From the NCBI GenBank assembly GCA_013824245.1, contig PNNN01000049.1, positions 13,202 to 77,201 of the forward strand: a stretch of DNA of 64,000 nucleotides. Direction: 5' to 3'. Origin of the DNA: Chlorobiaceae bacterium. Its GTDB lineage: Bacteria > Bacteroidota > Ignavibacteria > UBA10030 > SZUA-254. The translations under genes and the position numbers were made by a program. Below the pieces are notes generated by a model. It had not been told where the DNA came from, made no database searches, and saw nothing but the letters and a program-made list of their open reading frames with translations. Below are positions 3,713 through 60,690 of this stretch, piece after piece; within the stretch, counting starts at the first letter, position 1; each line of letters begins with the position of its first letter.

Positions 3713-3780
3713 TATAAGAAAAATCTCCGAAATGAGCGAGTGAATTAATTAATTCTTATCAAAATTATAAAAGAATCATC

Positions 3781-3809
3781 TTGAATCTCCAATTATCATT
3801 TTGTATATT
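3781..3809 (+). promoter_or_regulatory. sigma70-like promoter (TTGAAT-N17-TATATT) upstream of fumarase
   Basis: TTGAAT at 3781-3786, a 17-nt spacer, TATATT at 3804-3809. Confidence 0.4.
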
Positions 3810-3881
3810 CATTCATGTTAATACAACTGCCCAAATTAAGCATATCCTAATAAAAGTTTAATTATCCTGAAGGAGAATCCC

Positions 3882-5408
3882 ATGATACAATTCAAAGATA
3901 GTATGTTAAGGTTGATTACAGAAACATCATCAGATTTACCGCCCGATGTGCGGAGAGCGATTGAACGAATGATGAAAATCGAAACGCCCAAAACTCAATC
4001 ATCACTCGCTCTTGAAACTGTTGCAATCAATATCGATATGGCGAAGGAAGGGATTGCTCCTATCTGTCAGGATACCGGTATGCCTACATTTGAGATCCGA
4101 ACACCCGCCGGTATCAACCAGATCATCATGGAAAAACAAATCGAAGAAGCGGTTGCAGAGGCAACGAAGCAAGGAAAACTCCGCCCAAATTCTGTTGATT
4201 CTCTTACCGGAAAAAACAGCGGAAACAATCTAGGTCCGGGGACGCCGGTTATTCATTTTCATCAGTGGCAAAACGATGATGAGATAGAAGTTAAGCTTTT
4301 ACTTAAAGGCGGTGGATGCGAAAATAAAAATATTCAATACTCACTGCCTATAGAACTACCGAATTTAGGTAGAGCCGATAGGAGTATCGACGGAATAAGG
4401 AAATGTATTATGCACGCCGTTTGGCAAGCTCAAGGACATGGTTGCAGTGTTGGTGCTATCGGTGTGGGAATTGGCGGTGAAAGAACAACCGGATATGCAC
4501 TTGCAAAACAACAGCTATTTCGTTTACTCGATGATGTAAATCCCAATCCTGAACTGGCGAAGCTTGAAGATTACATCATGGAGAACGCCAATAAACTTGG
4601 TGTTGGCATGATGGGGTTTGGCGGAAAAGCTACATTGATCGGTTGCAAAATTGGAGTGTATAACAGATTACCGGCAAGCTTTTTTGTGTCGGTTGCTTAT
4701 GATTGTTGGGCATTTCGACGGCTTGGTGTTGTTGTAGATTCCAAAACCGGTTCAATTAAACGATGGTTGTATAAAGACGATAAACCATCGCCGCGTATGA
4801 CTAACGAAACGCAACTGCCACTCACAGGTACTGAAATATCATTGACTACTCCATTGTCGGAAGAACAAATAAGAAAATTAAAAGTTGGAGATATAGTTCT
4901 TTTAAATGGTACAATACATACCGGACGCGATGCATTGCATCATTATTTGATGACGCACGATTCTCCTGTTGATTTACGTGGCGGAGCTATTTATCACTGC
5001 GGTCCGGTTGCGTTGAAGAAAAACGATAAATGGTTTATGAATGCGGCAGGTCCTACCACAAGCGGGCGTGAAGAACCGTATCAGGCAGATGTTATTAAAA
5101 AATTTGGAGTGCGTTTGGTTATTGGAAAGGGTGGTATGGGTGCAAAAACACTTGCCGCGCTTAAAGAACATGGTGCAGTTTATTTAAACGCAATCGGTGG
5201 TGCGGCTCAGTATTATACAAAATGTATTACCGAAGTAACCGGGGTAGATTTCCTTGAGTTCGGCATACCCGAAGCCATGTGGCATATTACTGTTAAAGAT
5301 TTCCCCGCAATCGTTACAATGGATTCTCACGGTAATAGTTTGCATGCAGATGTGGAGAAAGCAACTGCTTCAGAACTTGCCAAGTATGCGGATGTAGTAA
5401 AATTCTGA
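3882..5408 (+). CDS. Class I (Fe-S) fumarate hydratase, fused alpha/beta type
   Basis: CQDTGMP motif, N-terminal TtdA-like and C-terminal TtdB-like halves in one 508-aa ORF; AAGGAG SD. Confidence 0.85.
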   Translation: MIQFKDSMLRLITETSSDLPPDVRRAIERMMKIETPKTQSSLALETVAINIDMAKEGIAPICQDTGMPTFEIRTPAGINQIIMEKQIEEAVAEATKQGKLRPNSVDSLTGKNSGNNLGPGTPVIHFHQWQNDDEIEVKLLLKGGGCENKNIQYSLPIELPNLGRADRSIDGIRKCIMHAVWQAQGHGCSVGAIGVGIGGERTTGYALAKQQLFRLLDDVNPNPELAKLEDYIMENANKLGVGMMGFGGKATLIGCKIGVYNRLPASFFVSVAYDCWAFRRLGVVVDSKTGSIKRWLYKDDKPSPRMTNETQLPLTGTEISLTTPLSEEQIRKLKVGDIVLLNGTIHTGRDALHHYLMTHDSPVDLRGGAIYHCGPVALKKNDKWFMNAAGPTTSGREEPYQADVIKKFGVRLVIGKGGMGAKTLAALKEHGAVYLNAIGGAAQYYTKCITEVTGVDFLEFGIPEAMWHITVKDFPAIVTMDSHGNSLHADVEKATASELAKYADVVKF

Positions 5409-5599
5409 TTATGATAATATAAATTATTAATAAAGAATTTTTTAAAATGTGCGATACGAACTTCATTTGATGTTTAAAAAAGACGCAATGTCTATCAAAT
5501 AATAGGAAAGCAATGTTGCGACCTTTGTGCCTTTGCGAGATATATTTTTTTGATGTATCTAATATTTGGATTATTCTCTAATTAATTTCTGAAGGGAAA

Positions 5600-5842
5600 A
5601 TGATGCCGGGTTTGATCATGATAAAAAATTTTCCAAACCGTATGTTTGCCGAAATGGCTCAGCAAACATTAGAAATTGAGGGTATTCATTCCATTATTAA
5701 AGCACCCGATTACGGATTCCCAGGTGCCGCAGCCGGCGGTGGGGTAGACTTATTCAGCGGTCAAGGAGTTGATCTTTATACTTCAGAAGAGGATGCCAAG
5801 AAGGCAGAAGAACTCGTAAGAGAACAATATGATGGAATTTAG
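5600..5842 (+). CDS. Small DUF2007-like (putative signal-transducing) protein
   Basis: 80-aa ORF with an SD-like GAAGGG. The family assignment is by resemblance only. Confidence 0.45.
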   Translation: MMPGLIMIKNFPNRMFAEMAQQTLEIEGIHSIIKAPDYGFPGAAAGGGVDLFSGQGVDLYTSEEDAKKAEELVREQYDGI

Positions 5843-48199: not shown

Positions 48200-48310
48200 T
48201 ATTTATCCCATCTAGAGTTTTCGCTCATTCACTTAGTTATTGTTTTTCTTCCCCATTTTTTGTAGATTATCAAAGCATTTTCAATACTCGTTATTCTTTT
48301 TTTACTTTTT

Positions 48311-48340
48311 TGCGCCGGAGGCGCATCCGCCTCCGGCGGA
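48311..48340. repeat. Two tandem 15-nt GC-rich mini-hairpins (may act as the mltD terminator)
   Basis: TGCGCC-GGA-GGCGCA then TCCGCC-TCC-GGCGGA, between a T-run and AATTTTT. They can alternatively fold as one 11-bp stem, CGCCGGAGGCG-CATC-CGCCTCCGGCG. Confidence 0.7.
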
Positions 48341-48356
48341 AATTTTTAATTGATCC

Positions 48357-48479
48357 GGAAAGGTGTCTGAGTTCCGCCAAAAGAATGGCGGATAAAGGTT
48401 GTCCCGAAGGGATTCCTTCGGAAAAAGATCCGGTCTCTTAGCTGTTAAAACAGGTGAAAAAGTTAGCGCAGAAGATTGG
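48357..48479 (+). pseudogene. Degenerate tRNA-Ser 5' portion (acceptor 5' strand through anticodon arm) with hairpin inserts in the D-loop and anticodon loop
   Basis: GGAAAGGTGTCTGAGT [TCCGCC-N8-GGCGGA] TAAAGGTTG [TCCCGAAGG-GATT-CCTTCGGA] AAAAGATCCGGTCTC [insert] GAAGATTGG, versus live-gene GGAGAGGTGTCTGAGTGGTTGAAAGAGCCGGTCTCGAAAACCGG. Confidence 0.7.
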
Positions 48480-48573
48480 CATACGTTTTTGATAAAATGT
48501 GTTGAACAATAGGGTTTCGTTTCTAAAGAAAAGATGTATATTTTTACTTTTTCATTTTTACTTTTTAATTGTT

Positions 48574-48632
48574 GGAGAGGTGTCTGAGTGGTTGAAAGAG
48601 CCGGTCTCGAAAACCGGTGTAGGCGCAAGTCT
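48574..48632 (+). pseudogene. Clean 59-nt copy of tRNA-Ser(CGA) nt 1-59 (left attachment-site repeat of the island)
   Basis: Identical to 55824-55882. Identity stops inside the variable arm, and the integrase gene follows 88 nt later. Confidence 0.85.
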
Positions 48633-48673
48633 TATTCACTTTCTAATTTGATTTTCCGCATTTAAAATTCCTC

Positions 48674-48694
48674 TGGTTACCAATGTGGTTACCA
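48674..48694 (+). promoter_or_regulatory. Direct TGGTTACCA repeats (candidate integrase arm-type sites)
   Basis: TGGTTACCA at 48674-48682 and 48686-48694. Related GTGGTTGC / TGGTTACC motifs lie at 55751-55771 near the other island end. Confidence 0.35.
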
Positions 48695-48719
48695 CTTGCC
48701 TTGAAAAGCGAGGTTCACC

Positions 48720-49739
48720 ATGTTTCTTTCTAAGCGTTCCAACGGTATCTACTATCTCTGGTATTTTGATGAAGGTGGTAGAAAACATAAAGTTTCTACG
48801 GGCTGTAATCTCAAATCCGATGCTGTTAAGTTTCTCAGAGATTTTAATGAGAATGCTTCTTACCGAAAATCCCGCATTACTCTTAAAACCCTCAAAGAAT
48901 TTCATTCCGATTATCAAACATATTCAAAAAGTGTTCATACCTTAAAAACTCAACAATCGATTGATAGTGCATTTAGAGAGCTTCAAAGGATTGTAGGTGA
49001 TATAATGCATAATAAAATCGGAATTCGTGAAATAGAAAGCTTCCTTGCTCAAAAGAAAGCTGAAGCATCTGAGTGGACAGCAAGAAAATATTATATCTCT
49101 CTTGCAAGTGCTTTCGAAACAGCGAAGCGGTGGAATTACATTTCAATAAATCCATTTCGTAAAGTTCAAAAACCCAAAACAAGTGAGGTTCAACCTGTAT
49201 ATCTCAATAAAGAGGATATGACATCTTTGCTGGGAAAAGTAACCGATATCCAATGCAAGAATTTATTTCTGGTAGCTGTATTGACTGGATTAAGGCTTGG
49301 TGAGCTTCTAAATCTTCAATGGAGCGATATAGATTTGATTAAAAAAGTTATCTACATAAAGAACAGAGAAACCTTTTCAACCAAGAACCGGAAAAATAGA
49401 GTTGCTCCAATAAATGAACAACTTCTCAACGTACTTATTTTAATGAAAGAGAATGCAAGTTCCGAAATCGTTTTCCATTCTAAGGGGAAACATCTCAAGC
49501 CAAATTGGATTTCAAAAGCGTTTAAAGGTTATGTTCTTAAAACTGGATTAAATGAGAAACTCCACTTCCACAGCTTACGGCATACATTTGCTTCATGGTT
49601 AGTTCAGGATGGAGTTTCTTTGTACGAGGTGCAGAAGTTACTTGGGCATTCAAATATATCGGTTACTCAGGTCTATTCTCATTTACAGCCGGAAACATTA
49701 CACTCAACTGTGAATAAGATTTCTTTGCAATTAAATTGA
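48720..49739 (+). CDS. int: Tyrosine recombinase / phage-type integrase
   Basis: C-terminal catalytic region with RLGELLNL ... HSLRHTFASWL ... LLGHSNISVTQVYSH (R, H-x-x-R, H, Y). Confidence 0.92.
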   Translation: MFLSKRSNGIYYLWYFDEGGRKHKVSTGCNLKSDAVKFLRDFNENASYRKSRITLKTLKEFHSDYQTYSKSVHTLKTQQSIDSAFRELQRIVGDIMHNKIGIREIESFLAQKKAEASEWTARKYYISLASAFETAKRWNYISINPFRKVQKPKTSEVQPVYLNKEDMTSLLGKVTDIQCKNLFLVAVLTGLRLGELLNLQWSDIDLIKKVIYIKNRETFSTKNRKNRVAPINEQLLNVLILMKENASSEIVFHSKGKHLKPNWISKAFKGYVLKTGLNEKLHFHSLRHTFASWLVQDGVSLYEVQKLLGHSNISVTQVYSHLQPETLHSTVNKISLQLN

Positions 49740-49851
49740 TTTACTTCCTGAATATTTGTACATTTTGGGGAATTTATATTCTCACAAATGTTCACTGAGT
49801 TATTATATCAAACTTTAAATTTATCTTGGGGATAAATAGGAAAGGTAAAAT

Positions 49852-50265
49852 ATGAAGTATTTTTTAAGTGTAATATCAGCGATTATGGTTCTATTGGTTA
49901 GTTGTTCAAAAGAACCAACTGTTGGAGAATGGTACGAACATATACCAACCAAGGAGAGAGTTAAGGTTGAATTTGTCGGAGATGGGTTTGCTGTTGGGAA
50001 AAAGTATTTATGGAAGTTGGAGTTGGCAAAAGAACATAGAGATAAAATGGTTCACGAACTTGATAGTCTTAATACCCTGCTTTTTTGTGATGAAGGCGAT
50101 AAAGAATGGCGTTTAAAATTCTACAATGAAGACTTGGAGGAATGTGCGCTCTGGGATGTCGGCAGTTCAGATAAAAGATATGTAGTTGTAAATCTCAAAT
50201 TGTTTCATCTCAAATTGTTTTCTTTGGAGAAATTCAATGCAGATTTTGCAAGGATACTTCGATGA
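49852..50265 (+). CDS. Hypothetical lipoprotein (island cargo)
   Basis: Lipobox LVSC; 137 aa. Confidence 0.6.
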   Translation: MKYFLSVISAIMVLLVSCSKEPTVGEWYEHIPTKERVKVEFVGDGFAVGKKYLWKLELAKEHRDKMVHELDSLNTLLFCDEGDKEWRLKFYNEDLEECALWDVGSSDKRYVVVNLKLFHLKLFSLEKFNADFARILR

Positions 50266-50301
50266 AAAAGAAAAACAAATCATTCAAGCGGAGGTAAAAA
50301 T

Positions 50302-50712
50302 ATGAAGTATTTTATTATCCTCTTTCTAATTGTTTTATTTTATAAGCCACTCAACGGACAAGACAAATCGAAAGAATTAAGTTATCAGAAAAGTTTTATG
50401 GAATATGAGGACACAAAAAAAGATAAGGCATCAGCACTTATTTGGCTGTCAATTATTCCGGGCGGTGGTATGTGGTATGCAGAGACAAACGGTTTATTTT
50501 TTCTTGGAAGTGAAATCGTTTTAGCTTCTTTATATATAGGTACAAAAGAAAATTTCTGGTTGGCGGGTTTGACTGCTATGAAATTATATGAGGTGTATTA
50601 TACATTCAGCGTGGTTGATGATTATAACCAGAACTTGCTCAAAGAATTGAAAATGGATTTATCATATAACAATCAACGCGGAATAGTTTATTCACTTTCT
50701 TTTAATTTTTAA
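50302..50712 (+). CDS. Hypothetical membrane protein (island cargo)
   Basis: Signal peptide plus two hydrophobic helices; GGAGG SD. Confidence 0.6.
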   Translation: MKYFIILFLIVLFYKPLNGQDKSKELSYQKSFMEYEDTKKDKASALIWLSIIPGGGMWYAETNGLFFLGSEIVLASLYIGTKENFWLAGLTAMKLYEVYYTFSVVDDYNQNLLKELKMDLSYNNQRGIVYSLSFNF

Positions 50713-50726
50713 ATGAACAAGGAATT

Positions 50727-51206
50727 ATGAAAAATTTAATAATTATCATTTTATCTTTGATCTTAATTTCCTGTGGACATTCATATTTCCCCGCATCTGT
50801 TAGGGAAATAGACAACACAAAAACATTTCAAATGAGTTATGAGCAGACATGGATGAAAATTATCGATTGGTTTGCTCTTCATAATACACCAATCAAAACA
50901 ATTGATAAAGCTTCTGGCTTGATTGCCAGTGATTATGAACTTGGATCAACATCGAAGTATTGCGACTGCGGAAGAGTGAATAGCGATTTCTTTCTTAGGT
51001 TGTCAATCGAAGAGTATTCCGGGAATATCAATATTCTTGTCCGGAAATTATCCGATGATACAACACGAGTAACGATATCTACTTTTTTCAGTGCTGTAAA
51101 AAAGATTTATGACAACATGGATCACAGATACCTCCGCGACGAGAAAATTAAATGTTATTCGAGCGGATTGTTAGAACAGGATATATTTCATTCGATATCA
51201 AAATGA
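50727..51206 (+). CDS. Hypothetical lipoprotein (island cargo)
   Basis: Lipobox LISC; 159 aa. Confidence 0.6.
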   Translation: MKNLIIIILSLILISCGHSYFPASVREIDNTKTFQMSYEQTWMKIIDWFALHNTPIKTIDKASGLIASDYELGSTSKYCDCGRVNSDFFLRLSIEEYSGNINILVRKLSDDTTRVTISTFFSAVKKIYDNMDHRYLRDEKIKCYSSGLLEQDIFHSISK

Positions 51207-51313
51207 TGCGTAAGAAAACTAAACCATTCAAGGGAACTGATAAGATCAATGTGAAAGACGTAACCGTTGGCGCCGATCATAAAACCGTGTATGGCAAAAA
51301 CTCCGATGTGATA

Positions 51314-51466
51314 GTTGGCGGGTTTGACTGCGATGAAATTATATGAAGTGTATTATACGTTCAGCGTGGTTGATGATTATAACCAGAACTTGCTCAAAGA
51401 ATTGAAAATGGATTTATCCTACAATCAACAAAGGGGCGTGGTTTATTCGATCTCTCTTAATTTATG
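51314..51466 (+). pseudogene. Startless duplicate of the 3' third of gene 50302..50712
   Basis: Direct repeat of 50559-50712. It encodes ...AGLTAMKLYEVYYTFSVVDDYNQNLLKELKMDLSYNQQRGVVYSISLNL* with no upstream start. Confidence 0.7.
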
Positions 51467-51686
51467 AGTACGCTTTACTTCAAAGGCAATTGGAAGGTAT
51501 TACACATCTTTTTCAATCAAAGATAGTTAAAGATTTATTTGCATTCTCCTTATATCTCTTCGTATATTTAATAAAGCAATTTCCGAATATATTGCTGACA
51601 AAAATTTAATCCTCTACTCGTTCACTTTGGGTGAAACCGATGCAATCGGTTCGGAAGCGAGTGGGGGATTTTTATTATAAGTCATC

Positions 51687-52307
51687 ATGAAAAAGAAACA
51701 TATTGTTCCTTACGATGGAGAACTTCTTACGATTGATACTATTGGCAAAGAAGATGAAGGAAAAACATTAGCATTTCGTAATCAGGTTCACAATTGTTGT
51801 CAGAAGAAATTTGATAGTTTCTTTAAAACATTTTTGAATATGTGCGCAATTTCGGAGAAAGGAGAACTTGAACAACAGAAGAATGATTTATATGTTAACT
51901 TCTTTCTGAAAGTTAATGAAAGAATATTTCAAATTATTACGCCAGCGACAGAAGATATTACTGATGATTATAAGCGTGGTAAAAAAAGATTAGAGATGCA
52001 AGAGAGAATAGACGTTGAAACATTAGTCAATGAAACACCGCTGATTTTATCACCATTGTTAAAAAATATTCTGAGGAAAAATCAGGATCGGTCAACGCAG
52101 ATGAGTGGGAAAAAAGTTTCAAAAGAACGAGAAGAATTATACTCGATAATTCACAATGAATTGAACGCTGAGGGGAAAAAACCAAAATCTAAAAGAAGAA
52201 GAAAAAGTACAATCATAAATAATTTATGCAACAGTAATCCATTATTCAAAAATGAAAATCCTACCAAATTGAGAAAAGCATACGATAGGATTGAAAGCAA
52301 GAAATGA
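51687..52307 (+). CDS. Hypothetical basic protein (island)
   Basis: 206 aa with a Lys/Arg-rich C-terminus. No family was recognised. Confidence 0.55.
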   Translation: MKKKHIVPYDGELLTIDTIGKEDEGKTLAFRNQVHNCCQKKFDSFFKTFLNMCAISEKGELEQQKNDLYVNFFLKVNERIFQIITPATEDITDDYKRGKKRLEMQERIDVETLVNETPLILSPLLKNILRKNQDRSTQMSGKKVSKEREELYSIIHNELNAEGKKPKSKRRRKSTIINNLCNSNPLFKNENPTKLRKAYDRIESKK

Positions 52308-52316
52308 AAAATAGTT

Positions 52317-52359
52317 TCTACTATACCTATAGTAGAATTCTACTTATGCCATAGTAGAA
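52317..52359. promoter_or_regulatory. Two adjacent palindromic operator-like sites sharing the half-site TCTACT
   Basis: TCTACTATA-CC-TATAGTAGA (52317-52336) and TTCTACT-N7-TAGTAGAA (52338-52359). Confidence 0.4.
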
Positions 52360-52507
52360 ATATCCTTTTATAGATTAAAGTATATCGAGTGAGAATTAGT
52401 TACTCAATTACTTTAGCTTAAATTGAAATATGAGCCGAAATCTTGATTGAATATGCTAAAGGTTCAATTAAGCTCTTTCGGTTTTTTATTCCTTAAGGAG
52501 TAAAAAT

Positions 52508-52930
52508 ATGTTTCAACAAATATTAACAGTAACACGGTCAGGCAAAGTATTACTTACCCTTCCAAATAAAGAGTATAAATCACGCCGGCATATTGGAGAT
52601 GTTATCGAAAACACTCTCCATGTTAAACGTGATCCCACAAGGCATTTCTTTAATCGATTTAATGGATATGGTTTCTGCTATGAGTTGATGAGGGATGGAA
52701 GTTTTGAAAGGGTTGTCGTTCACCTTCCCTTCGGTAAAACACTTGTAACTACAAGGAAGCACATTTTAGCGAAAGGGAAAATACTGAATTTTCAAAAGAA
52801 CAAACTGGAAAAGCAGATATATTTATCATTAGATGATTATGGGCTTGACAAGGCGAGAGAAAGTGAGATGAATAGTATTCCAACTAAACTAATCGATCCA
52901 CAGCTCTCAATTTTCGGAGGTATCCAATGA
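52508..52930 (+). CDS. Hypothetical protein (island), overlapping the helicase start
   Basis: AAGGAG SD; 140 aa; 4-nt overlap (ATGA) with the next gene. Confidence 0.6.
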   Translation: MFQQILTVTRSGKVLLTLPNKEYKSRRHIGDVIENTLHVKRDPTRHFFNRFNGYGFCYELMRDGSFERVVVHLPFGKTLVTTRKHILAKGKILNFQKNKLEKQIYLSLDDYGLDKARESEMNSIPTKLIDPQLSIFGGIQ

Positions 52931-54282
52931 ATATTTCGAGACAAGATATTGAAGAAAGAATAATTGGACAGCTTCTCTTCGATGGTAAGAAAGCAACATT
53001 GGAAGCGTGTAGCATCGTTGATGAAATAGATTTTTCGGATCCGGCTTGTTCAATTCTCTTTGGTGTTTGCGTTGCACTCGTTTCACAACATAAAAGTGTT
53101 GATGCTTTGAGTGTTCATCAGTTTTTGCAGAATAATACCGAGAAGCTTGGCACTCATTTCCAGAAATTATCATCTTTGACAGATGCAAAAACAACAATTA
53201 CTAATTTGATCCTGAAAGCTACAGACATCTCTTGCATGTATGCAACAAGAGGTTACTCAAATGATTTAATCATCAACTGTAAATACCTCAGACAAGAGAA
53301 TGAACGAAAGAAAGCTCAAGAGATAATTTTATCAGCCGGAACGAAGCTGAATGATGGAATTGAAGTTGAAACGGTAATCGAAGAGGCAACAAAAGAACTG
53401 ATTACACTTTCAGCGAAATCACAAAACATTAAAAGCTACACTCATTTGGAAGATGCTTTTAATGAAGCAATAAAGGAAACAGAGGATGAAATCGCTGGCA
53501 AGGTTGTAAGATTATCAACAGGTTTCTCAGAGCTTGATAGTATTATCTATGGACTTGAAAAAGGTCGATTGTACTGTATTGCAGCGGAGGAAAAGATCGG
53601 TAAAAGTTTATTGAGTTATCAGATCGGTTTGAATAGTGCTACGAAAGGAAATCCATCAACCATTATTTCAATGGAGATGAAAGCTTCAGAGATTGCCAAA
53701 CGATTTGCAGGAGTGAACAGCGGTCAAGAAGCATTGCATCGATTGAATGCACTCAAAAAATTCAAAGCTGAAATTGGCAGTTATCCTCTTTTCATTCGAG
53801 ATGGTTCAGCTAATCAAGGGAAGGTGTTTATCACAACCCATAAGCTATATGCTGAAAAACGGATTGAGCTTTTGATTGTTGACTATCTTCAGTTGATCGA
53901 ATTGCAAGGAAGAGATAGAACGAATGATGTGAACGAATTTGTGAGTAAGCTGAAAGGCATGGCAATGGATTTAAATATTCCTATCGTTCTTATCTCGGCT
54001 GTATTGAATAAACAGTTAAGCTATAGAAACAATAGGAAACCAACTCCGGCTGACTTGCGTGATACAGGCAGGCTTGCCAATGATGCTGACTGTTTGATAT
54101 TCATCTGGAAACCTGATGAACAAGATGAGAGCTACCTTGAGTTATTTGTTGCACGTTCACGGTACTCAAAACTTGGAAGGATCGGTTTATCTCTCAATCC
54201 AGAGACATTAAAACTCTCACAGACAGAACTTCGAGATTTGGATGGTAGTTCTAACCAGTCAACAGAGTTTAAACGGTTCTGA
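52927..54282 (+). CDS. DnaB-like replicative helicase
   Basis: DnaB N-terminal domain pattern (IEERIIGQLLFDG...), TGFSELDSII, Walker A variant EEKIGKS, IVDYLQL, and DLRDTGRLANDADCLIFI. Confidence 0.8.
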   Translation: MNISRQDIEERIIGQLLFDGKKATLEACSIVDEIDFSDPACSILFGVCVALVSQHKSVDALSVHQFLQNNTEKLGTHFQKLSSLTDAKTTITNLILKATDISCMYATRGYSNDLIINCKYLRQENERKKAQEIILSAGTKLNDGIEVETVIEEATKELITLSAKSQNIKSYTHLEDAFNEAIKETEDEIAGKVVRLSTGFSELDSIIYGLEKGRLYCIAAEEKIGKSLLSYQIGLNSATKGNPSTIISMEMKASEIAKRFAGVNSGQEALHRLNALKKFKAEIGSYPLFIRDGSANQGKVFITTHKLYAEKRIELLIVDYLQLIELQGRDRTNDVNEFVSKLKGMAMDLNIPIVLISAVLNKQLSYRNNRKPTPADLRDTGRLANDADCLIFIWKPDEQDESYLELFVARSRYSKLGRIGLSLNPETLKLSQTELRDLDGSSNQSTEFKRF

Positions 54283-54290
54283 GGTGATAT

Positions 54291-54926
54291 ATGCAGGGAT
54301 GGATAAAACTTTATCGATCTACTCAAGGAAATGAGTTCTACTTTTCTGAAAGGTTTACCAAAGCACAAGCTTGGATTGACCTTTTACTATTGGCAAATCA
54401 TAAACCGGCTACAATCTTTCTTCGAGGTGTTGAGGTGCATCTTGGTAAGGGTGATTTAGCATACAGTCAAATTTCACTTGCGAAACGATGGAAATGGAAT
54501 GAACGAACCGTCAACAAGTTTTTAACTATGCTTGAAAAGAGGCAAATGATACAGAGCAGAAAATCCAACATAACGACCGTGATTTCGATAATTAACTACA
54601 CTTTGTATCAAAGCAGTACAGAACAGAGTACAGTACAGAATACAGAGCAAAGTACGAGCAGAATACAGACAGACAAGAATGATAAGAATGAAGAGAATGT
54701 TTTTGTTGAGCAGCTAATATCCTACTTAAAAGAAAACAATATTCACTTTGATGAAGGTAATTTAAGGGGAAGGATCACCAAAGCCCTGAACACCTATGAA
54801 GAAAATATTATCCGATACGCTGTAAACGATGCAGTAGAGAGTTGGAAGAAAAACGGGAACGAGGGAAATTTTGTCGCATATTTATTCACTATTTTGGAGC
54901 ATAACTATCAAGAGGCTGAACCATGA
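54291..54926 (+). CDS. Replication-organizer / DnaD-like winged-helix protein (tentative)
   Basis: N-terminus WIKLYRS...AQAWIDLLLLAN...GDLAYSQISLAKRWKWNERTVNKFLTMLEKRQMI resembles phage replication-protein wHTH domains. Confidence 0.5.
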   Translation: MQGWIKLYRSTQGNEFYFSERFTKAQAWIDLLLLANHKPATIFLRGVEVHLGKGDLAYSQISLAKRWKWNERTVNKFLTMLEKRQMIQSRKSNITTVISIINYTLYQSSTEQSTVQNTEQSTSRIQTDKNDKNEENVFVEQLISYLKENNIHFDEGNLRGRITKALNTYEENIIRYAVNDAVESWKKNGNEGNFVAYLFTILEHNYQEAEP

Positions 54927-55114
54927 ATGAAGATACTACCGATAACAGAGACAAGATTGAAGATATATTTTTATTCACAGCTCAAGAGGTGAGCGAAAAA
55001 GCATACGAGAAATATAGCTCAGGCGAAATATCACAAGCTGAATTGGCTGAAATCTATCACCTGTTAAAACATTGGACATTAGAAAGCGAACAACTCCTAA
55101 AGATATTACAATAA
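54923..55114 (+). CDS. Hypothetical 63-aa protein (island)
   Basis: 4-nt overlap with the upstream gene; acidic. Confidence 0.45.
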   Translation: MNEDTTDNRDKIEDIFLFTAQEVSEKAYEKYSSGEISQAELAEIYHLLKHWTLESEQLLKILQ

Positions 55115-55129
55115 TTTGAAGGACATACA

Positions 55130-55546
55130 ATGAAAGACACGCAAACAAAGAACCGATTTATTGAACTCCGGTCACAGGGTATTAGCTACGAGAAGATAGC
55201 AACGGAACTCAAGGTATCTAAACAGACATTGATAAATTGGAGTAAAGAATTACAGCTTGAAATACTGAACTTACGTGCAATCCAACTTGAGGCACTTCAG
55301 GAAAAATACTTCCTTACAAAAGAAAAGAAAGTCGAGTTCATTGGCAATATATTGAATTCATTGAAGGCTGAGGCTGACAAACGAGATTTATCTAAACTAT
55401 CAGATCGAGAACTTTTTGAACTCATTTTGAAATATTCAGAGAAGTTAGACAAGGAAATAGTACCAGTTACTTTCATGGCTGAAGAAGAAAGAAGTTTAAT
55501 CGATTATGATACGACTGTAACGGATAGGAAAACATGGTCAGCGTAA
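55130..55546 (+). CDS. HTH-domain protein with a coiled-coil tail (regulator or small-terminase-like; unresolved)
   Basis: GISYEKIATELKVSKQTLINW is a helix-turn-helix. The rest is predicted helical. Confidence 0.5.
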   Translation: MKDTQTKNRFIELRSQGISYEKIATELKVSKQTLINWSKELQLEILNLRAIQLEALQEKYFLTKEKKVEFIGNILNSLKAEADKRDLSKLSDRELFELILKYSEKLDKEIVPVTFMAEEERSLIDYDTTVTDRKTWSA

Positions 55547-55694
55547 TGGAGACCGTTTCTTGACCCTTTTTTGACTGGTTGAGTTCTCTGACACCAAAAA
55601 AAGAGATTGAGTTTATTTCTGGAATTTCGTATATTTATATCGACTTAAAGAGCAACTTCCACAAAAGAAGAAGAAATCGAACTCGTAAGAGTTG

Positions 55695-55740
55695 AACGCC
55701 AAGAATAAAGGTGTGGAAGCCTGCTCACTTGGCGTTTTTA
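55695..55740 (+). terminator. Rho-independent terminator inside the island's right end
   Basis: AACGCCAAG ... CTTGGCGTT stem followed by TTTT. Confidence 0.6.
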
Positions 55741-55823
55741 ATTTTGACAGGTGGTTGCTTTTTTGGTTACCTTGAAGTAATTAAAACAGGATTTTCACGA
55801 AGGTCAAATTATGAATTTTGTTT

Positions 55824-55910
55824 GGAGAGGTGTCTGAGTGGTTGAAAGAGCCGGTCTCGAAAACCGGTGTAGGCGCAAGTCTATCGAGAGTTCGAATCTC
55901 TCCCTCTCCG
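55824..55910 (+). tRNA. tRNA-Ser (anticodon CGA), class II with a long variable arm; no encoded CCA
   Basis: Acceptor GGAGAGG/CCTCTCC, anticodon arm CCGGT-CTCGAAA-ACCGG, variable arm TGTAGGCGCAAGTCTATC, T arm GAGAG-TTCGAAT-CTCTC. Closely resembles E. coli tRNA-Ser. Confidence 0.95.
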
Positions 55911-55913
55911 CTT

Positions 55914-56180
55914 ATGTGCTCTGTATATGTGATTTGGAGTGAAAAGCTGAAGAAGCGATATATTGGATCGACTGAGGATGTTGATAAAAGATTGAATCAG
56001 CATAATAGCGGCAAAACTCCATTTACTAGCAGAGGAATTCCATGGAATAAAATTCATGTCGAAAAATATAGTTCAATCATTGAAGCACGAGCTAGAGAGA
56101 GATTTTTGAAAAGCGGTAAGGGAAGAGAGTGGTTAGATAAAATGTACCCTGACCTGAGAAAGAAAGATGTTGTATGTTAA
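55914..56180 (+). CDS. Small stand-alone GIY-YIG nuclease-domain protein (88 aa)
   Basis: VYVIWS...RYIGSTEDVDKRLNQHNSG...PW...EARARERFLKSGKGREWL is the GIY-YIG/URI pattern. The ATG lies 3 nt after the tRNA discriminator. The ORF-track N-terminus (55818-55913) is the tRNA. Confidence 0.8.
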   Translation: MCSVYVIWSEKLKKRYIGSTEDVDKRLNQHNSGKTPFTSRGIPWNKIHVEKYSSIIEARARERFLKSGKGREWLDKMYPDLRKKDVVC

Positions 56181-56193
56181 AAGAGCCGGTCTC

Positions 56194-56248
56194 TCAGCCA
56201 GAGGCTGATGCGCCTTCCGCCATTAAGATAGGCGGACAAGTCGGCGCA
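56194..56248. repeat. 55-nt hairpin block inserted between anticodon nt C34 and G35
   Basis: TCAGCC-AGAG-GCTGA, then TGCGCC-[T TCCGCC-ATTAAGATA-GGCGGA CAAGTC]-GGCGCA (one hairpin nested in the loop of another). Confidence 0.85.
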
Positions 56249-56283
56249 GAAAACCGGTGTAGGCGCAAGTCTATCGAGAGTTC

Positions 56284-56313
56284 TGAGCCTACGGCTCATC
56301 CGCCTAAGGCGGA
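56284..56313. repeat. 30-nt hairpin block inserted between T-loop nt C56 and G57
   Basis: TGAGCC-TAC-GGCTCA then TCCGCC-TAA-GGCGGA. Confidence 0.85.
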
Positions 56314-56503
56314 GAATCTCTCCCTCTCCGCCAAACTGTGTTCCGATAAATCGGAACTTCGTTTGGCAAGTATAACCAACGAAGCTCTGAAGGAGCGTAG
56401 TTGGTCATCTCCGCCGATGTTTTAAAAAAATAATTTATTCTAACAGTTTAAATATTTTAAATCATTTCAATTATTTCAATCCTAAAATCATTCTAACTGA
56501 ATT

Positions 56504-57622
56504 ATGAACATTCCACTCGCAGATCTGAAGAAACAATATCAATCTATAAAACCGGAAATCGATTCCGCAATCCAAAATGTAATTGAAAATACTCAATTCA
56601 TTCTCGGGAAAGCTGTCACCGATTTCGAGCAAGAATTTGCAAAAGCACATCATGTAAAACACTGCATCGCAGTTGGCTCCGGAACAGACGCGCTTCATGC
56701 CGCACTCTGGGCATTAGACATTGGTCTGGGTGACGCGGTTATCACAACACCGTTCACTTTCATTGCAACCGTAGAGGCAATTTCACTTACCGGTGCTCAG
56801 CCGCTTTTCGTCGACATCGAACCAAAGACGTATACGATGGATCCGGTAAAGTTAGAGGAGTTATTGAAATCTCCTCAGGGGAAAAACGTGAAAGCCATAC
56901 TGCCTATACATTTGTACGGTCAACCGGCGGCGATGGATGAGATCCAGAAAATTGCTTTGAAATATAATGTGAAGATAATTGAAGATGCCGCGCAATCTCA
57001 TTTGGCGATGTACGATGGAAAATTTGTAGGTAACTTTGGTGAAGCCGCCTGTTTCAGTTTCTATCCCGGTAAAAATTTAGGCGCATATGGTGAAGCCGGC
57101 GGAATAATTACAAACGATGATGCGTTTGCAAAGAAACTCCGTCAACTTCGCGATCATGGTCAGTCTGAAAAGTACAAACATCAGTTCTGGGGACACAATT
57201 ACCGGATGGACGGAATACAAGGTGCCGTGCTTGGTGTTAAACTGAAATATCTCGCGCAATGGACAGCAAAGCGGAGGGAGATAGCAGCAAAATATAAACA
57301 GACATTCAACGGTATCGGCGATCTGATTTTGCCGTACGAATCGCCTAAAGCCGTTCACGTTTATCATCAATTTGTTTTGCGTACAAAAAAGCGGGCAGCG
57401 TTTCAACAATACCTAACCGATAAAGAAATTGGAAACGCTCTTCATTACCCAATCCCGATTCATTTTCAGGAAGCATACAAGCATCTCGGCTACAAGCCCG
57501 GAGATTTTCCTGTAAGCGAAGCGTGTGCTGAAGAATGCATTTCAATACCGGCTCATCCTGAGATGACTGAGGAGATGGTAAATTACGTGATTGAGGAAGT
57601 GTGTAGTTTTTATAAATCTTGA
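56504..57622 (+). CDS. DegT/DnrJ/EryC1/StrS-family PLP-dependent sugar aminotransferase
   Basis: 372 aa with the family pattern (GSGTDALH..., FYPGKNLGAYGEAG). Confidence 0.88.
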   Translation: MNIPLADLKKQYQSIKPEIDSAIQNVIENTQFILGKAVTDFEQEFAKAHHVKHCIAVGSGTDALHAALWALDIGLGDAVITTPFTFIATVEAISLTGAQPLFVDIEPKTYTMDPVKLEELLKSPQGKNVKAILPIHLYGQPAAMDEIQKIALKYNVKIIEDAAQSHLAMYDGKFVGNFGEAACFSFYPGKNLGAYGEAGGIITNDDAFAKKLRQLRDHGQSEKYKHQFWGHNYRMDGIQGAVLGVKLKYLAQWTAKRREIAAKYKQTFNGIGDLILPYESPKAVHVYHQFVLRTKKRAAFQQYLTDKEIGNALHYPIPIHFQEAYKHLGYKPGDFPVSEACAEECISIPAHPEMTEEMVNYVIEEVCSFYKS

Positions 57623-57657: not shown

Positions 57658-60600
57658 TCAGTGTATATGAATCATTTTTTTCACCTGACATTCATGCGAT
57701 GTTTGAAATTTATAAAAATAAATACCACTTGGTAAATTTTCAGAATTCCATTCAACCGTATGTATCCCTGGTTCTTTGTTATTATCGACTAATGTTGAAA
57801 TTTCTCTCCCGAGAATATCATAAATTTTAATTGATACATGACCCTGTATTTTGACTTGATATTCAAAGGCAGTATATCTTGAGAATGGATTTGGTTTATT
57901 TTGGGATAATGTATATGAGTGATGCTTCGATTCTCGATCGATAATTACGCTAGTTGTAGGAGCCGGATGTTTAATGATTGCAAAAACCCTCCAATCTGGT
58001 GCATCGAACATTCCTGCTGAATAAACATTACCCGATTTGTCAACATCAACTGCCCAACCCCAATCATCCGAATATTCCGGACCACTAACAGCACTTGACC
58101 ATTCTAAACCTGTTTGATTGAATTTTAGCAGAAGAATATCTTGTCCCATCGTTTCTCCACTTGAGATTCTTCCAACTACATAAACACTTCCATCTGAACT
58201 AATTGCTAATTTGGAAGCGCCTGCATCAACATTATTTAAAACTGAGTATGGTAAAATCCATTTTTCTTGACCATCACCGTTGTACATAATAGTAACGCAA
58301 TAGCTACCGGTCACATATATCATTCCATCTTTATCAACTGTAATATCCGATACGGCACCGAAGGATTTGTCGTACATTCTAGACCATAGTAGATTACCCG
58401 TTGAATCATATTTAATTGTCGACATACACGCCGTTCCATTACGAGTTCTTTCACTATAACCACCTATATAGACATTTCCAAAATTATCTACAAATATAGC
58501 CCTACTAAAATCGTTGCCATTTGCCAATCCATTATATAATTGCTTCCATATTTCTTTACCATCGCTGTCAAACTTTATTAATACCATGTCTTTCAATGTT
58601 TCTACACCCGTGCTACCTCCTGTTACACATATATTACCTTTTTGATCAATCACGATATTAACAAAAAAATCTTCTGAATGAGCAGGTCCATCATACAGTC
58701 TCATCCATTCAATATTTCCATATTGATTTAATTTGACCAGAGTGCCATTTAATTCTTCATTTGATATATAGCTATACCCCGCGATATAAATTGCATTTGA
58801 ATCATAAACTGCAATATCCGAGAGAAAATTATTATGTTTTCCCGAGGCATCATATTGTTGAACCCAAAGTTCCTCACCTTGTGGATTGTATTTTATTATT
58901 AGGAAGTCTCTCGTAGAGTACCCCTGTTTTGTAGCTCCAACATAAATGTTTCCCGTACTATCTTGAGCGATATCCGTAAAAATCGCTTTTTCCTTAAATG
59001 CTTCCCATAATATCTCACTTTTACTGTTTAGTTTTATTAATCCAATTCCATCTCCTATCATACCGGTTACATAAACATCACCCTTATTATCAACAAGGAG
59101 ATTTTCTGCAATAGCAGACGAAGTGCCAGGTCCATTATAGAGTTGATTCCATATATCTTTGCCCGATGGATCAATCTTTAACACCATGAGGTCATCTGAC
59201 GTATTTTGGAAGATACAAAAACCACCAATGAAGATATTACCAGAATTATCTAACTTCATATCTATTGGGGCAGTTGCACCACCTAAAAGGTATCTTGATT
59301 GCCACCGCTGATTGCCATCGGGAGCGTATTTTACAGTCGAACAATACATCATATCGATTGTAGTTGTGATGCCAGTAACGATGACATTTCCCGAATCATC
59401 CTGAGAAAATCCTTGAGGTGAATTATTCCCATTATTGCTATAGCGAGAACTCCAACATTCTTCTCCAATTGAATCATATTTTATCGTTAAAAAATCGGCA
59501 AGTGAATCCGATTCCTCGCTATTCCCTGTTACATAAGCATTCCCCGAATCATCAGCTATGATCGCAAACGCTCCGTCGTTAGAATTTATTTGACCTGTAT
59601 AACGTTTAGTCCACTCTATGGTTCCGTTGGAATTATACTTAATTGTTAGGTAATCGTCACTCAAATCAGTTCCTTTGCTATAGCCAGTTACATAGACGAA
59701 GCCAGAATCATCTAAATCAACAGAGGTAGCGAAATCAATGGAGTGAGATGGTCCATCATATTCTTTAATCCATTGAATCTCTCCTCCAAAAGTACATTTC
59801 ATTGTTGTATAATCATAAGATGTGCCTGTGTTAGACGAATAACCTACAAGGTAAATTGATTCCCTTTGATTATCGATTGCTAAACTTATTGGTAAACTTA
59901 CTGCATCTCCAGTCCCGGTATGTTTAACAACCCAGAGTTTCTCACCTTGATTGTTATATTTAACCACAGCCCATGTTGGACGGATATTACTATTGTAGGT
60001 ATACCCACACACGTATATATCCCCATCTAAATCTATACCCATCGTAACCGGTCGATCAAATGAACCTCCAGAGTCATCATAACGTTGAACCCACTGCTCA
60101 ACACCGTTAGAGTCGTATTTGATTAAAACATAATCATAATTTGTTCCGCTTCCATAACTATAACCTGTTACATATACGTTAGCTGAATCATCTATCGCAA
60201 TCTTCACGCTCCAATCTTTGAAGCTTCCGAGACCGTCATAGCGTCTAACCCACTTCTGTTCACCATCCGAGGAATATTTTATTGTTACTATATCATAATA
60301 TGCTTCCGGACTCTCGCTAGGTCCAGTAGCGTAGAGATTACCATTTTTATCACGTGCAATTGATGTGGCTGCTTCATGACCTGGAATCGTGCCACCTCCA
60401 TAACGCTTAACCCATTCAGGTTTTGGCGCATCATTATTACTCTGAAATTCCGTATTCAATAATTGATTCTTGGATGAACTTGAATTCGGATAACAATTTA
60501 AATTTTCATTGTGGAAATCATTTCTATCCAACTGATTTTTAGTTTGTGGATATTGAAATCTTTCAGTCTCGTAATTAAATATAGAATCAAAAAATCCATG

Positions 60601-60690
60601 ATATTTAGAACTATCATGAAACTGCAATGATTTACTCGAAATAGAAAGAGTAATTGTCATTATACTTATTAACAATATTCCATTTTGCAT
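57658..60690 (-). CDS. SBBP beta-propeller-repeat protein with a T9SS C-terminal sorting domain
   Basis: More than 15 repeats of the ...G(N/D).YVTGYS....DY.TIKY...G...W pattern. C-terminal tail NKPNPFSRYTAFEY...GIYFYKF... Confidence 0.8.
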   Translation of the reverse strand: MQNGILLISIMTITLSISSKSLQFHDSSKYHGFFDSIFNYETERFQYPQTKNQLDRNDFHNENLNCYPNSSSSKNQLLNTEFQSNNDAPKPEWVKRYGGGTIPGHEAATSIARDKNGNLYATGPSESPEAYYDIVTIKYSSDGEQKWVRRYDGLGSFKDWSVKIAIDDSANVYVTGYSYGSGTNYDYVLIKYDSNGVEQWVQRYDDSGGSFDRPVTMGIDLDGDIYVCGYTYNSNIRPTWAVVKYNNQGEKLWVVKHTGTGDAVSLPISLAIDNQRESIYLVGYSSNTGTSYDYTTMKCTFGGEIQWIKEYDGPSHSIDFATSVDLDDSGFVYVTGYSKGTDLSDDYLTIKYNSNGTIEWTKRYTGQINSNDGAFAIIADDSGNAYVTGNSEESDSLADFLTIKYDSIGEECWSSRYSNNGNNSPQGFSQDDSGNVIVTGITTTIDMMYCSTVKYAPDGNQRWQSRYLLGGATAPIDMKLDNSGNIFIGGFCIFQNTSDDLMVLKIDPSGKDIWNQLYNGPGTSSAIAENLLVDNKGDVYVTGMIGDGIGLIKLNSKSEILWEAFKEKAIFTDIAQDSTGNIYVGATKQGYSTRDFLIIKYNPQGEELWVQQYDASGKHNNFLSDIAVYDSNAIYIAGYSYISNEELNGTLVKLNQYGNIEWMRLYDGPAHSEDFFVNIVIDQKGNICVTGGSTGVETLKDMVLIKFDSDGKEIWKQLYNGLANGNDFSRAIFVDNFGNVYIGGYSERTRNGTACMSTIKYDSTGNLLWSRMYDKSFGAVSDITVDKDGMIYVTGSYCVTIMYNGDGQEKWILPYSVLNNVDAGASKLAISSDGSVYVVGRISSGETMGQDILLLKFNQTGLEWSSAVSGPEYSDDWGWAVDVDKSGNVYSAGMFDAPDWRVFAIIKHPAPTTSVIIDRESKHHSYTLSQNKPNPFSRYTAFEYQVKIQGHVSIKIYDILGREISTLVDNNKEPGIHTVEWNSENLPSGIYFYKFQTSHECQVKKMIHIH

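Follow-up and report, generated by a model that had tools for sequence, protein, structure and literature searches.

Mobile endonuclease open reading frames (mORFs) make hybrid genes in fungal mitochondria, in atp6 of Allomyces macrogynus and in atp6, atp9, cox2, and nad3 of Glomus; the Glomus atp9 mORF is of the GIY-YIG type, and a cut-and-copy scheme with a displaced native gene end has been proposed for both genera (PMC3630166). In bacteriophages, the free-standing GIY-YIG nuclease SegB of the T4 transfer RNA (tRNA) cluster cuts inside the tRNA region, and its gene, along with the flanking DNA, is preferentially inherited (PMC2330249; PMC13096335). A 2006 survey of the GIY-YIG superfamily reported no tRNA linkage for the UPF0213 proteins and mentioned no tRNA-linked cassettes (PMC1564403). 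Here, we analyzed a 64,000-nucleotide (nt) stretch of contig PNNN01000049.1 of a Chlorobiaceae bacterium (hereafter, the window), in which an open reading frame (ORF) for an 88-amino acid (aa) GIY-YIG protein lies between an intact tRNA-Ser(CGA) gene and a displaced, partial copy of that gene. This ORF is probably the only gene of a minimal selfish homing-type cassette that invades and restores tRNA genes. The unit consists of a partial tRNA copy (here nt 18–87) and an ORF of ~80 aa; it sits in the tRNA transcription unit, so that the intact tRNA is kept and the displaced resident part survives only as a dead remnant beyond the ORF. Across many phyla, 23 tRNA species have such a unit, which may precede or follow the tRNA and may stand singly or in tandem. 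The features of the locus are as follows.

55824..55910, + strand: intact tRNA-Ser(CGA) (ARAGORN; Rfam RF00005, 59.6 bits), with discriminator G at 55910
55911..55913, + strand: CTT spacer from the discriminator to the ATG (direct reading)
55914..56180, + strand: GIY-YIG nuclease ORF, Slx1/UPF0213-like, 88 aa plus TAA (Pfam PF01541, E=4.7e-15)
56176..56193, + strand: displaced tRNA block A, tRNA nt 18–35 (repeat search; one mismatch, at 56179)
56194..56248, + strand: hairpin insert H1, 55 nt, splitting the anticodon at C35/G36 (raw numbering)
56249..56283, + strand: displaced tRNA block B, nt 36–70 (repeat search; 100% identical to the intact tRNA)
56284..56313, + strand: hairpin insert H2, 30 nt, interrupting the T loop at TTC^GAAT
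56314..56333, + strand: displaced tRNA block C, nt 71–87, plus an encoded CCA at 56331–56333 (repeat search; 100%)
56330..56367, + strand: hairpin beginning in the GCCA end (GCCAAAC...GTTTGGC; repeat search), weakly terminator-like
56380..56415, + strand: remnant of a second, different GIY-YIG cassette, comprising the last codons and stop of a second ORF (ORF2) and then a tRNA acceptor-3' fragment (alignment)

A sequence-only reading of this locus had placed the start of the ORF 3 nt past the tRNA discriminator, as we also found (CTT at 55911–55913, ATG at 55914). The span it had assigned, 55911–56180, is right at its end and is corrected at its start to 55914, position 55911 being the first base past the discriminator. 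Its statement that the ORF has no Shine-Dalgarno sequence holds, the 20 nt 5' of the ATG being tRNA sequence (GAATCTCTCCCTCTCCGCTT) that lacks the motif; the accompanying statement that most genes in the window have one is weak, a Shine-Dalgarno-like 4-mer being found for 18 of 40 long ORFs. The stop codon was likewise correctly located: TAA at 56178–56180 lies within the D-loop of the displaced tRNA copy, and the same spot in the intact tRNA reads TGA. The two copies had been said to differ by a single base; instead, the displaced copy consists of three blocks split by the 55-nt and 30-nt hairpin inserts, and identity to the intact tRNA, bar one mismatch, holds within the blocks. These repeats are beyond chance (any match in 0 of 100 shuffles). 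H1 is made up of TCAGCC-AGA-GGCTGA and then TGCGCC...GGCGCA, in which TCCGCC..GGCGGA and CAAG are nested, and H2 of TGAGCC-TAC-GGCTCA and then TCCGCC-TAA-GGCGGA. When the displaced fragment was folded as single-stranded DNA or RNA, the anticodon and T stems were kept and the new hairpins branched off the loops (z = -6.9 and -5.8). The intact tRNA has no encoded CCA. The cassette repeats are separated by 264 nt of unique DNA, in which the 88-aa ORF is the sole gene and no tyrosine or serine recombinase was found.

A word-indexed search returned 41 homologues, and the exact protein is annotated in the metagenome-assembled genome (MAG) 'Chlorobiaceae bacterium' of NCBI. In all contexts fetched for these homologues, the gene stood against tRNA-Ser(CGA), on either side of it, with hairpin-bearing tRNA fragments beyond the ORF. 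We also scanned 185,579 genomes, one per species, with a protein pattern blind to tRNAs; 245 relatives were found and the best 80 were kept. A tRNA gene lay within 150 nt at 70 of these 80 best relatives and on the same strand in all 70, a count that includes related loci and tandem copies and thus loci that are not phylogenetically independent; seven of the ten exceptions were at contig ends. The tRNA was upstream of the ORF at 26 loci (median gap, 22 nt) and downstream at 44 (median, 18 nt). Among the tRNA-linked loci were 23 tRNA species, and the phyla of the relatives included Patescibacteria, Bacteroidota, Ignavibacteriota, Verrucomicrobiota, Marinimicrobia, Acidobacteriota, and Omnitrophota. 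The adjacency to tRNA genes and the flanking tRNA-fragment repeats that the sequence-only reading had looked to among relatives are therefore both present. Generally, across the ~70 loci, an intact tRNA on one side of the ORF pairs with a partial, block-identical (100%) copy of the same tRNA on the other side. Breakpoints of block identity fell in the D, anticodon, or T loops in 51% of cases, while these loops make up 27% of the tRNA length (about twofold enrichment). The nearest-neighbor protein was linked to the same tRNA isotype in 53 of 76 cases versus 12 expected; switches among Ser isoacceptors were seen at 85–90% protein identity, and a proline clade was found on both sides of its tRNA.

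Tandem arrays comprised eight copies in Psychroflexus curvus, four in Aquimarina, and two in several MAGs, the copies being 76–100% identical with ratios of nonsynonymous to synonymous substitution rates (dN/dS) of 0.06–0.36. The array of the cultured organism P. curvus CAK1W (NZ_JAIQZF010000008.1; L069, L-numbers being our labels for the relatives' fetched loci) spans positions 2992–5790 and holds eight tandem ORFs, 76–98% identical, of which seven are intact and one, the last, is cut short; tRNA-Met pieces that carry two TCCGCC hairpins follow each of them. A CCA was encoded in 9 of 31 tRNAs upstream of the ORF, 17 of 45 downstream, and 8 of 24 other tRNAs. Since these counts show no such trend, we rejected the loss of CCA as a general adaptation for release of the mRNA by RNase Z. 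As with SegB of T-even phages, the nuclease gene stands among tRNA genes. SegB, however, has 221 aa and a DNA-binding region, is phage-borne, and lies between whole tRNA genes, and to our knowledge it leaves no partial tRNA duplication and no hairpin inserts. Unlike phage-borne SegB, the cassette family gave a single match among 2.9 million viral contigs; this sole relative had no tRNA nearby, and phage as the cassette vector was rejected on that ground.

Comparison of close relatives at this locus showed that the junction discriminator-CT(T)-ATG is common to the window, L087, L088, and L001. L087 shares with the window the tRNA, the CTT, the ORF, and both hairpin inserts; a single additional A shifts the reading frame of its ORF, and beyond the displaced copy, a truncated second copy of the ORF is fused to the tail of ORF2. 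L088, whose protein is 77% identical, carries tandem cassettes, namely, tRNA-CTT-ORF, a fragment with the anticodon-loop hairpin only, and CTT-ORF again. In L001 (74% identical), the displaced 3' end (GAATCCCACCTTCTCCGCCA) is unlike the cassette-borne end, and the latter is identical to that of the window. Because the two ends differ, the L001 cassette appears, from this alignment, to have carried a tRNA end of its own. In L008, L038, and L050, displaced ends were stacked and differed in their T arms. Taken together, the close relatives appear to record, at a single site, invasion, renewed invasion in tandem, decay by frameshift, and deletion. The tRNA linkage, an origin separate from the neighboring integrase island (described below), the shared junction, and the foreign end in L001 support what the sequence-only reading had raised as an unusual idea, a minimal GIY-YIG cassette that targets and restores a tRNA gene.

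Tandem 3' tRNA fragments with hairpins and no ORF between them were also observed in L017 (3360–3780), L038 (3335–3610), and L050 (3314–3460); each fragment ends in CCA, and some T arms differ. These could be decayed cassettes or non-autonomous units.

As in mORFs, an endonuclease ORF is inserted together with a replacement gene end, and the native end persists beyond it as a duplicate that is no longer used. In mORFs, the inserted end may be foreign and the ORF is transcribed with the host gene; in the cassette family, the two ends clearly differ in L001, L008, L038, and L050 but are identical in the window, and joint transcription is probable. Unlike in mORFs, the target is a tRNA gene of a bacterial chromosome, not a protein gene of a mitochondrion, the ORF encodes no more than a catalytic domain of ~80 aa in the Slx1/UPF0213 clade, 5'- and 3'-replacing versions exist, and the displaced copy contains conserved hairpin inserts.

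A DNA pattern for an uninterrupted tRNA plus CCA gave a single hit, the metagenomic locus L086. On its DegT side, L086 shows synteny with the window, and its tRNA nt 18–87 and CCA are free of hairpin inserts. Yet another acceptor fragment lies there past the tRNA-Ser CCA with its hairpin and past a second GIY-YIG ORF; the GCCAAAC...GTTTGGC hairpin after tRNA-Ser-CCA is conserved in both L086 and L008. ORF2 is complete in L086 (reverse strand, ~1285–1555; 37% identical to the ORF; Pfam E=1e-15) and ends beside this other acceptor fragment, whereas in the window, only its last codons and an acceptor fragment are left, and in L087, it is fused to the truncated first ORF. Since L086 has another acceptor fragment beyond the CCA, the hairpin, and ORF2, the CCA-bearing copy in the window may not be the original tRNA end; the sequence-only reading, which took it for the original, was right as to its encoded CCA and doubtful as to its originality. 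The first base of the L086 contig is tRNA nt 18, precisely at the boundary of the cassette (GTTGAAAG...), which suggests either an assembly break caused by the repeat or an occupied/empty polymorphism. Except for the ORF2 remnant, no further GIY-YIG gene was found in the window; a tblastn match at 48568–48648 was rejected because it is translated tRNA sequence only.

The hairpins were characterized on the basis of the core GCC-N3-GGC alone. Among 196 cores at ≤300 nt from an ORF in the fetched loci, pairing at the outer three positions is seen in 92, 92, and 88% of the unique sequences and at the fourth in only 23%, so that the stem is exactly 6 bp; with its 3-nt loop, the hairpin has 15 nt. 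Cores at >800 nt from an ORF pair at ~50%. Compensatory double changes numbered 25–41 per variable pair, and the observed covariation score was reached by 0 of 500 shuffles. With a stricter definition used for counts over 431 kb, there were 195 hairpins, 146 of them within 150 nt of an ORF, and control cores gave 4–12 in total. A strict hairpin was present within 500 nt at 65 of 81 loci, and in the window, strict hairpins occur only at two tRNA-fragment patches. The commonest form is TCCGCC-N3-GGCGGA. Double hairpins are arranged head-to-head, the second unit being approximately the reverse complement of the first (loops CAA/TTG and AGA/TCT), and the double hairpins of L059 and L075 are perfect 30-nt palindromes. 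In tRNA-Ser, hairpins are inserted immediately 5' of a GAA, at T20^G21, C35^G36, and C70^G71, and loci of the proline and methionine clades have a hairpin in place of a stem strand or the whole anticodon arm. Hairpin type tracks the protein/tRNA clade, so that the 15-nt hairpins are inherited together with the cassette as its heritable companion. They also turn over, since two near-identical tandem units of L008 differ in the D-loop hairpin.

Two joints in L035 were observed in addition. At 2790–2860, a hairpin lies where a truncated ORF, which breaks off past its YIG motif, meets a tRNA-Pro fragment, and at 3240–3290, a hairpin abuts an inverted copy of tRNA-Pro nt 1–10. Hairpins therefore mark rearrangement joints too, beyond loop insertions. 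Furthermore, TCCGCC, the 5' arm of the commonest hairpin, doubles as the 3' terminus of tRNA-Ser (...CTCTCCGCC-A; window 56299–56333), and the 3' arm of H2, GGCGGAG, can pair with the acceptor end of the fragment, which may be a coincidence. The hairpins were rejected as a known RNA family because Rfam 15 gave tRNA matches only (window 55000–57000 at E<=1 and ten other loci at E<=0.1), and as intrinsic terminators because no T-runs follow them, the one weak terminator-like site lying past the displaced fragment.

Double-hairpin elements have been described in Allomyces mitochondrial DNA (Paquin et al. 2000, cited in PMC7218506). These elements, like yeast mitochondrial GC clusters and the bacterial repetitive extragenic palindromic (REP) sequences with their REP-associated tyrosine transposases (RAYT), resemble the present hairpins in being short GC-rich modules in AT-rich DNA that are optional among relatives and thought to be mobile. 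The present hairpins differ from Allomyces double hairpins, GC clusters, and REP in their 15-nt units, their fixed GCC-N3-GGC core, and their confinement to tRNA fragments beside one nuclease family, in place of a scatter over intergenic DNA. No HUH (RAYT) transposase appeared in the Pfam annotations of the neighborhoods examined, in which no search aimed at RAYT was made.

The protein matched PF01541 (GIY-YIG) with 56.1 bits against a cut-off of 22.6. Y5, Y16, G18, R26, H30, and E62 were invariant across 22 aligned sequences, and Y5, Y16, R26, H30, and E62 correspond, by analogy with characterized members, to catalytic-type residues. AlphaFold2 run on the family alignment gave a model with a predicted local distance difference test score of 92.7 and the order strand-strand-helix-helix-strand-helix-helix, which Foldseek matched to Slx1, 1zg2, I-TevI (1ln0), and UvrC. 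A profile search against the PDB gave 1zg2 (E=3.9e-13), 1ywl (3.8e-11), Slx1 (1.5e-5), and I-TevI (1.3e-3). The nearest structures by profile are thus UPF0213 proteins and the Slx1 nuclease domain, ahead of I-TevI and UvrC, and the Foldseek order agrees. These comparisons and the model indicate that the ORF belongs to the Slx1/UPF0213 clade rather than the homing endonuclease/UvrC lineage. Slx1 and UPF0213 proteins (PDB 7cq2, 6seh, 1zg2, and 1ywl) are its best matches in both sequence and fold. Slx1 cuts branched and stem-loop DNA, an activity that would suit a target made of hairpins, and the function of UPF0213 proteins is not known. Unlike Slx1, the 88-aa protein is a nuclease domain only, without the RING domain that is a hallmark of Slx1, and no conserved partner gene, including a Slx4-like one, was found in the neighborhoods of the relatives (L001, L002, L004, and L005). 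It also differs from I-TevI and Seg proteins in lacking a separate DNA-binding domain. No NCBIfam family exceeded its cut-off, and PADLOC gave no notable match to a defense system.

The family is large, with 7,200 clusters at E<=1e-10 (HMMER against 1.84 billion representatives; clusters at 50% identity), and Patescibacteria and Bacteroidota are among the groups in which it is abundant. Many members have N-terminal extensions of 20–40 residues (P0002, P0006, P0026, and many of P0042–P0191). In those checked, P0002 and P0006, and likewise in the 120-aa ORF of the window, the extension is a translated tRNA or hairpin-bearing fragment, and the extensions in the remaining entries are probably the same systematic gene-calling artefact.

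By analogy with homing endonucleases and fungal mORFs, the cassette could spread as follows. The nuclease would cut a tRNA gene that has no cassette, the likely site being a loop of cloverleaf DNA in extruded or single-stranded form; this would suit an Slx1-like enzyme without a binding domain. The break would be repaired from an occupied copy, with priming in the shared tRNA sequence, so that part of the donor tRNA and the ORF are copied, and the recipient's own part past the cut would stay as the displaced fragment. Under this model, nt 1–17 of the intact tRNA in the window are proposed to be resident and nt 18–87 cassette-borne. Because the restored tRNA is again a target, re-invasion would yield tandem arrays. 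Since there is no room for a promoter or leader, and no sigma-70-type promoter was predicted between the tRNA and the ORF, the ORF is probably expressed by read-through from the tRNA promoter followed by release through tRNA processing; a leaderless mRNA released in this way is plausible. As for the hairpins, our guess is that they would fill the positions at which the nuclease cuts, which in tRNA-Ser would be Y^GAA in each of the D, anticodon, and T loops; speculatively, by breaking the direct repeat into blocks of 13–35 nt, they might guard the cassette from re-cutting and from deletion between the repeats. We put forward a further idea only tentatively, as one that is more doubtful than not: that the nuclease reads DNA shape, i.e., the extrudable loops of tRNA genes, instead of sequence, and that the hairpins are a second, non-coding mobile part that it installs or that its cuts recruit, plugging the cut sites in the displaced copy. 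This would make a two-part structure-guided insertion system with target immunity, and we know of no description of such a system for any GIY-YIG enzyme.

Two further tRNA-Ser pieces lie upstream of the locus in the window.

48574..48632, + strand: tRNA-Ser nt 1–59, the left direct repeat of an integrase island, without hairpins; a separate event from the GIY-YIG cassette
48296..48470, + strand: older decayed tRNA-Ser 5' fragment with three hairpin inserts (48346–48470), homologous to the 5' fragments of L008 and L088 (alignment)

Just downstream of the former is a tyrosine integrase (48720–49739; Pfam E=9e-40), which opens a phage-like gene set extending to 55546 and including a DnaB-like helicase (52927–54282) and a helix-turn-helix protein (55130–55546). 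The right 59-nt repeat of the island is 55824–55882, the island itself occupying 48633–55823 (7.2 kb with the repeats, 48574–55882), and it replaces the 5' part of the tRNA, not the usual 3' part. Because its own 59-nt repeats bound it, the island is an insertion into the same tRNA-Ser that is separate from the cassette. In the older fragment, two of the three hairpin inserts are common to L008 and L088, and a double hairpin (48311–48340) is in a duplicated promoter-like leader and not in a tRNA loop; this patch looks like what is left of an older cassette of the upstream type that has lost its ORF. Beyond the locus, at 57658–60690 on the - strand, is a 1,010-aa beta-propeller-repeat protein with a C-terminal sorting domain of the type IX secretion system (Por_Secre_tail), which fits a host of the Bacteroidota/Ignavibacteriota type over true Chlorobiaceae.

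Three other explanations were weighed. The displaced tRNA fragment might be the attachment-site scar of the tyrosine-integrase island, with the ORF as left-over cargo, given that the integrase and the phage-like genes are just upstream and that tRNA genes are classic integrase targets; in such islands too, the tRNA is restored by an element-borne copy and the displaced partial tRNA forms a direct repeat. The island nevertheless has repeats of its own (tRNA nt 1–59), and it is absent from L087, which keeps the cassette and its hairpins. Both facts speak against an origin of the downstream fragment from the island, on which the sequence-only reading had made its case depend. Moreover, unlike integrase islands, the cassette is devoid of an integrase and its repeats, which begin in the D loop and are later interrupted by hairpins, enclose only 264 nt; the gene calls at four relatives' loci (L001, L002, L004, and L005), to which the screen for integrases was confined, contained no integrase domain, and 70 tRNA-linked loci show the same architecture. 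This explanation is largely refuted, and we consider it most improbable. A different possibility is passive spread, in which cargo flanked by tRNA homology moves by homologous recombination, transformation, and unequal crossing-over, and the nuclease takes no part. Flanking repeats are exactly the outcome of single-crossover insertion of a circle carrying a tRNA segment, and the 76–100% identity of tandem units fits unequal crossing-over. Passive spread leaves unexplained, however, why the cargo always belongs to this nuclease family across phyla, why the catalytic residues are invariant, and why breakpoints and hairpin inserts are concentrated in loops, and it seems to us quite unlikely.

The third alternative is a domesticated, host-useful small nuclease that is co-transcribed with tRNA genes and serves, for instance, in repair or maintenance of highly transcribed, structure-prone tRNA DNA or in defense of tRNA genes against integrating elements, the tRNA fragments being by-products of recombination. 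The gene is under purifying selection (dN/dS = 0.03–0.36, with saturated dS), tandem copies remain intact, viral contigs hold almost none of this very large family, and an Slx1-like fold points to structure-specific cutting over sequence-specific homing. A host function is harder to reconcile with 23 tRNA partners and a position on either side of the tRNA, with the frameshifted copy in L087 and the remnants in the window, with stacked displaced tRNA ends of foreign sequence, with the lack of a conserved partner gene in the neighborhoods examined, and with a patchy distribution among related genomes; we judge it unlikely, if less so than the other two. Several points nonetheless count against the selfish cassette that we favor. 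Such strong, long-lasting purifying selection with saturated dS suits a host-useful gene equally well as a parasite, and the near-absence from viral contigs fits both. No DNA-binding domain was detected by Pfam, the alignment, or AlphaFold2, nothing lying past the ~80-aa catalytic core, and every characterized GIY-YIG homing endonuclease known to us has one. The locus counts do not represent independent events, as stated above, and the hairpins are not obligatory, since 16 of 81 loci have none within 500 nt. Because both tRNA copies are identical in the window, the foreign origin of the inserted tRNA part is invisible there. L086, the sole candidate for an empty site, could be an allele without the cassette, from a mixed population, or else a displaced copy that lacks the plugs. 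That the protein is an active nuclease, where it would cut, and what the hairpins would do are argued by analogy. Finally, the restored tRNA would remain a target, and how the host escapes constant cutting is left unexplained.

The principle of the proposed cassette is known, both from the endonuclease ORFs that bring a replacement gene end in fungal mitochondria and from GIY-YIG genes among phage tRNA genes such as segB, and the hairpin component is its most original feature. In the full-text literature searched, whose coverage leaves out most subscription journals, we found neither tRNA-linked cassettes with a small GIY-YIG gene nor the present hairpins described for bacteria; a GIY-YIG protein is listed among genes transferred from Patescibacteria (PMC12455944). 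The idea is directly testable, as a cultured carrier exists in P. curvus CAK1W. If it is true, one of the commonest 'hypothetical GIY-YIG' families would be an unrecognized class of minimal selfish DNA, whose elements rewrite tRNA genes and so give rise to chimeric tRNAs, stacked tRNA pseudo-fragments, and tandem arrays. It would explain many of the tRNA fragments and assembly breaks by tRNA genes, as well as spurious N-terminal extensions read through tRNAs. A nuclease of ~80 aa that finds its target without a DNA-binding domain, together with loop-precise hairpins, would offer a compact model of structure-guided DNA targeting, and the family would be a bacterial counterpart of the mobile ORFs that form hybrid genes in fungal mitochondria.

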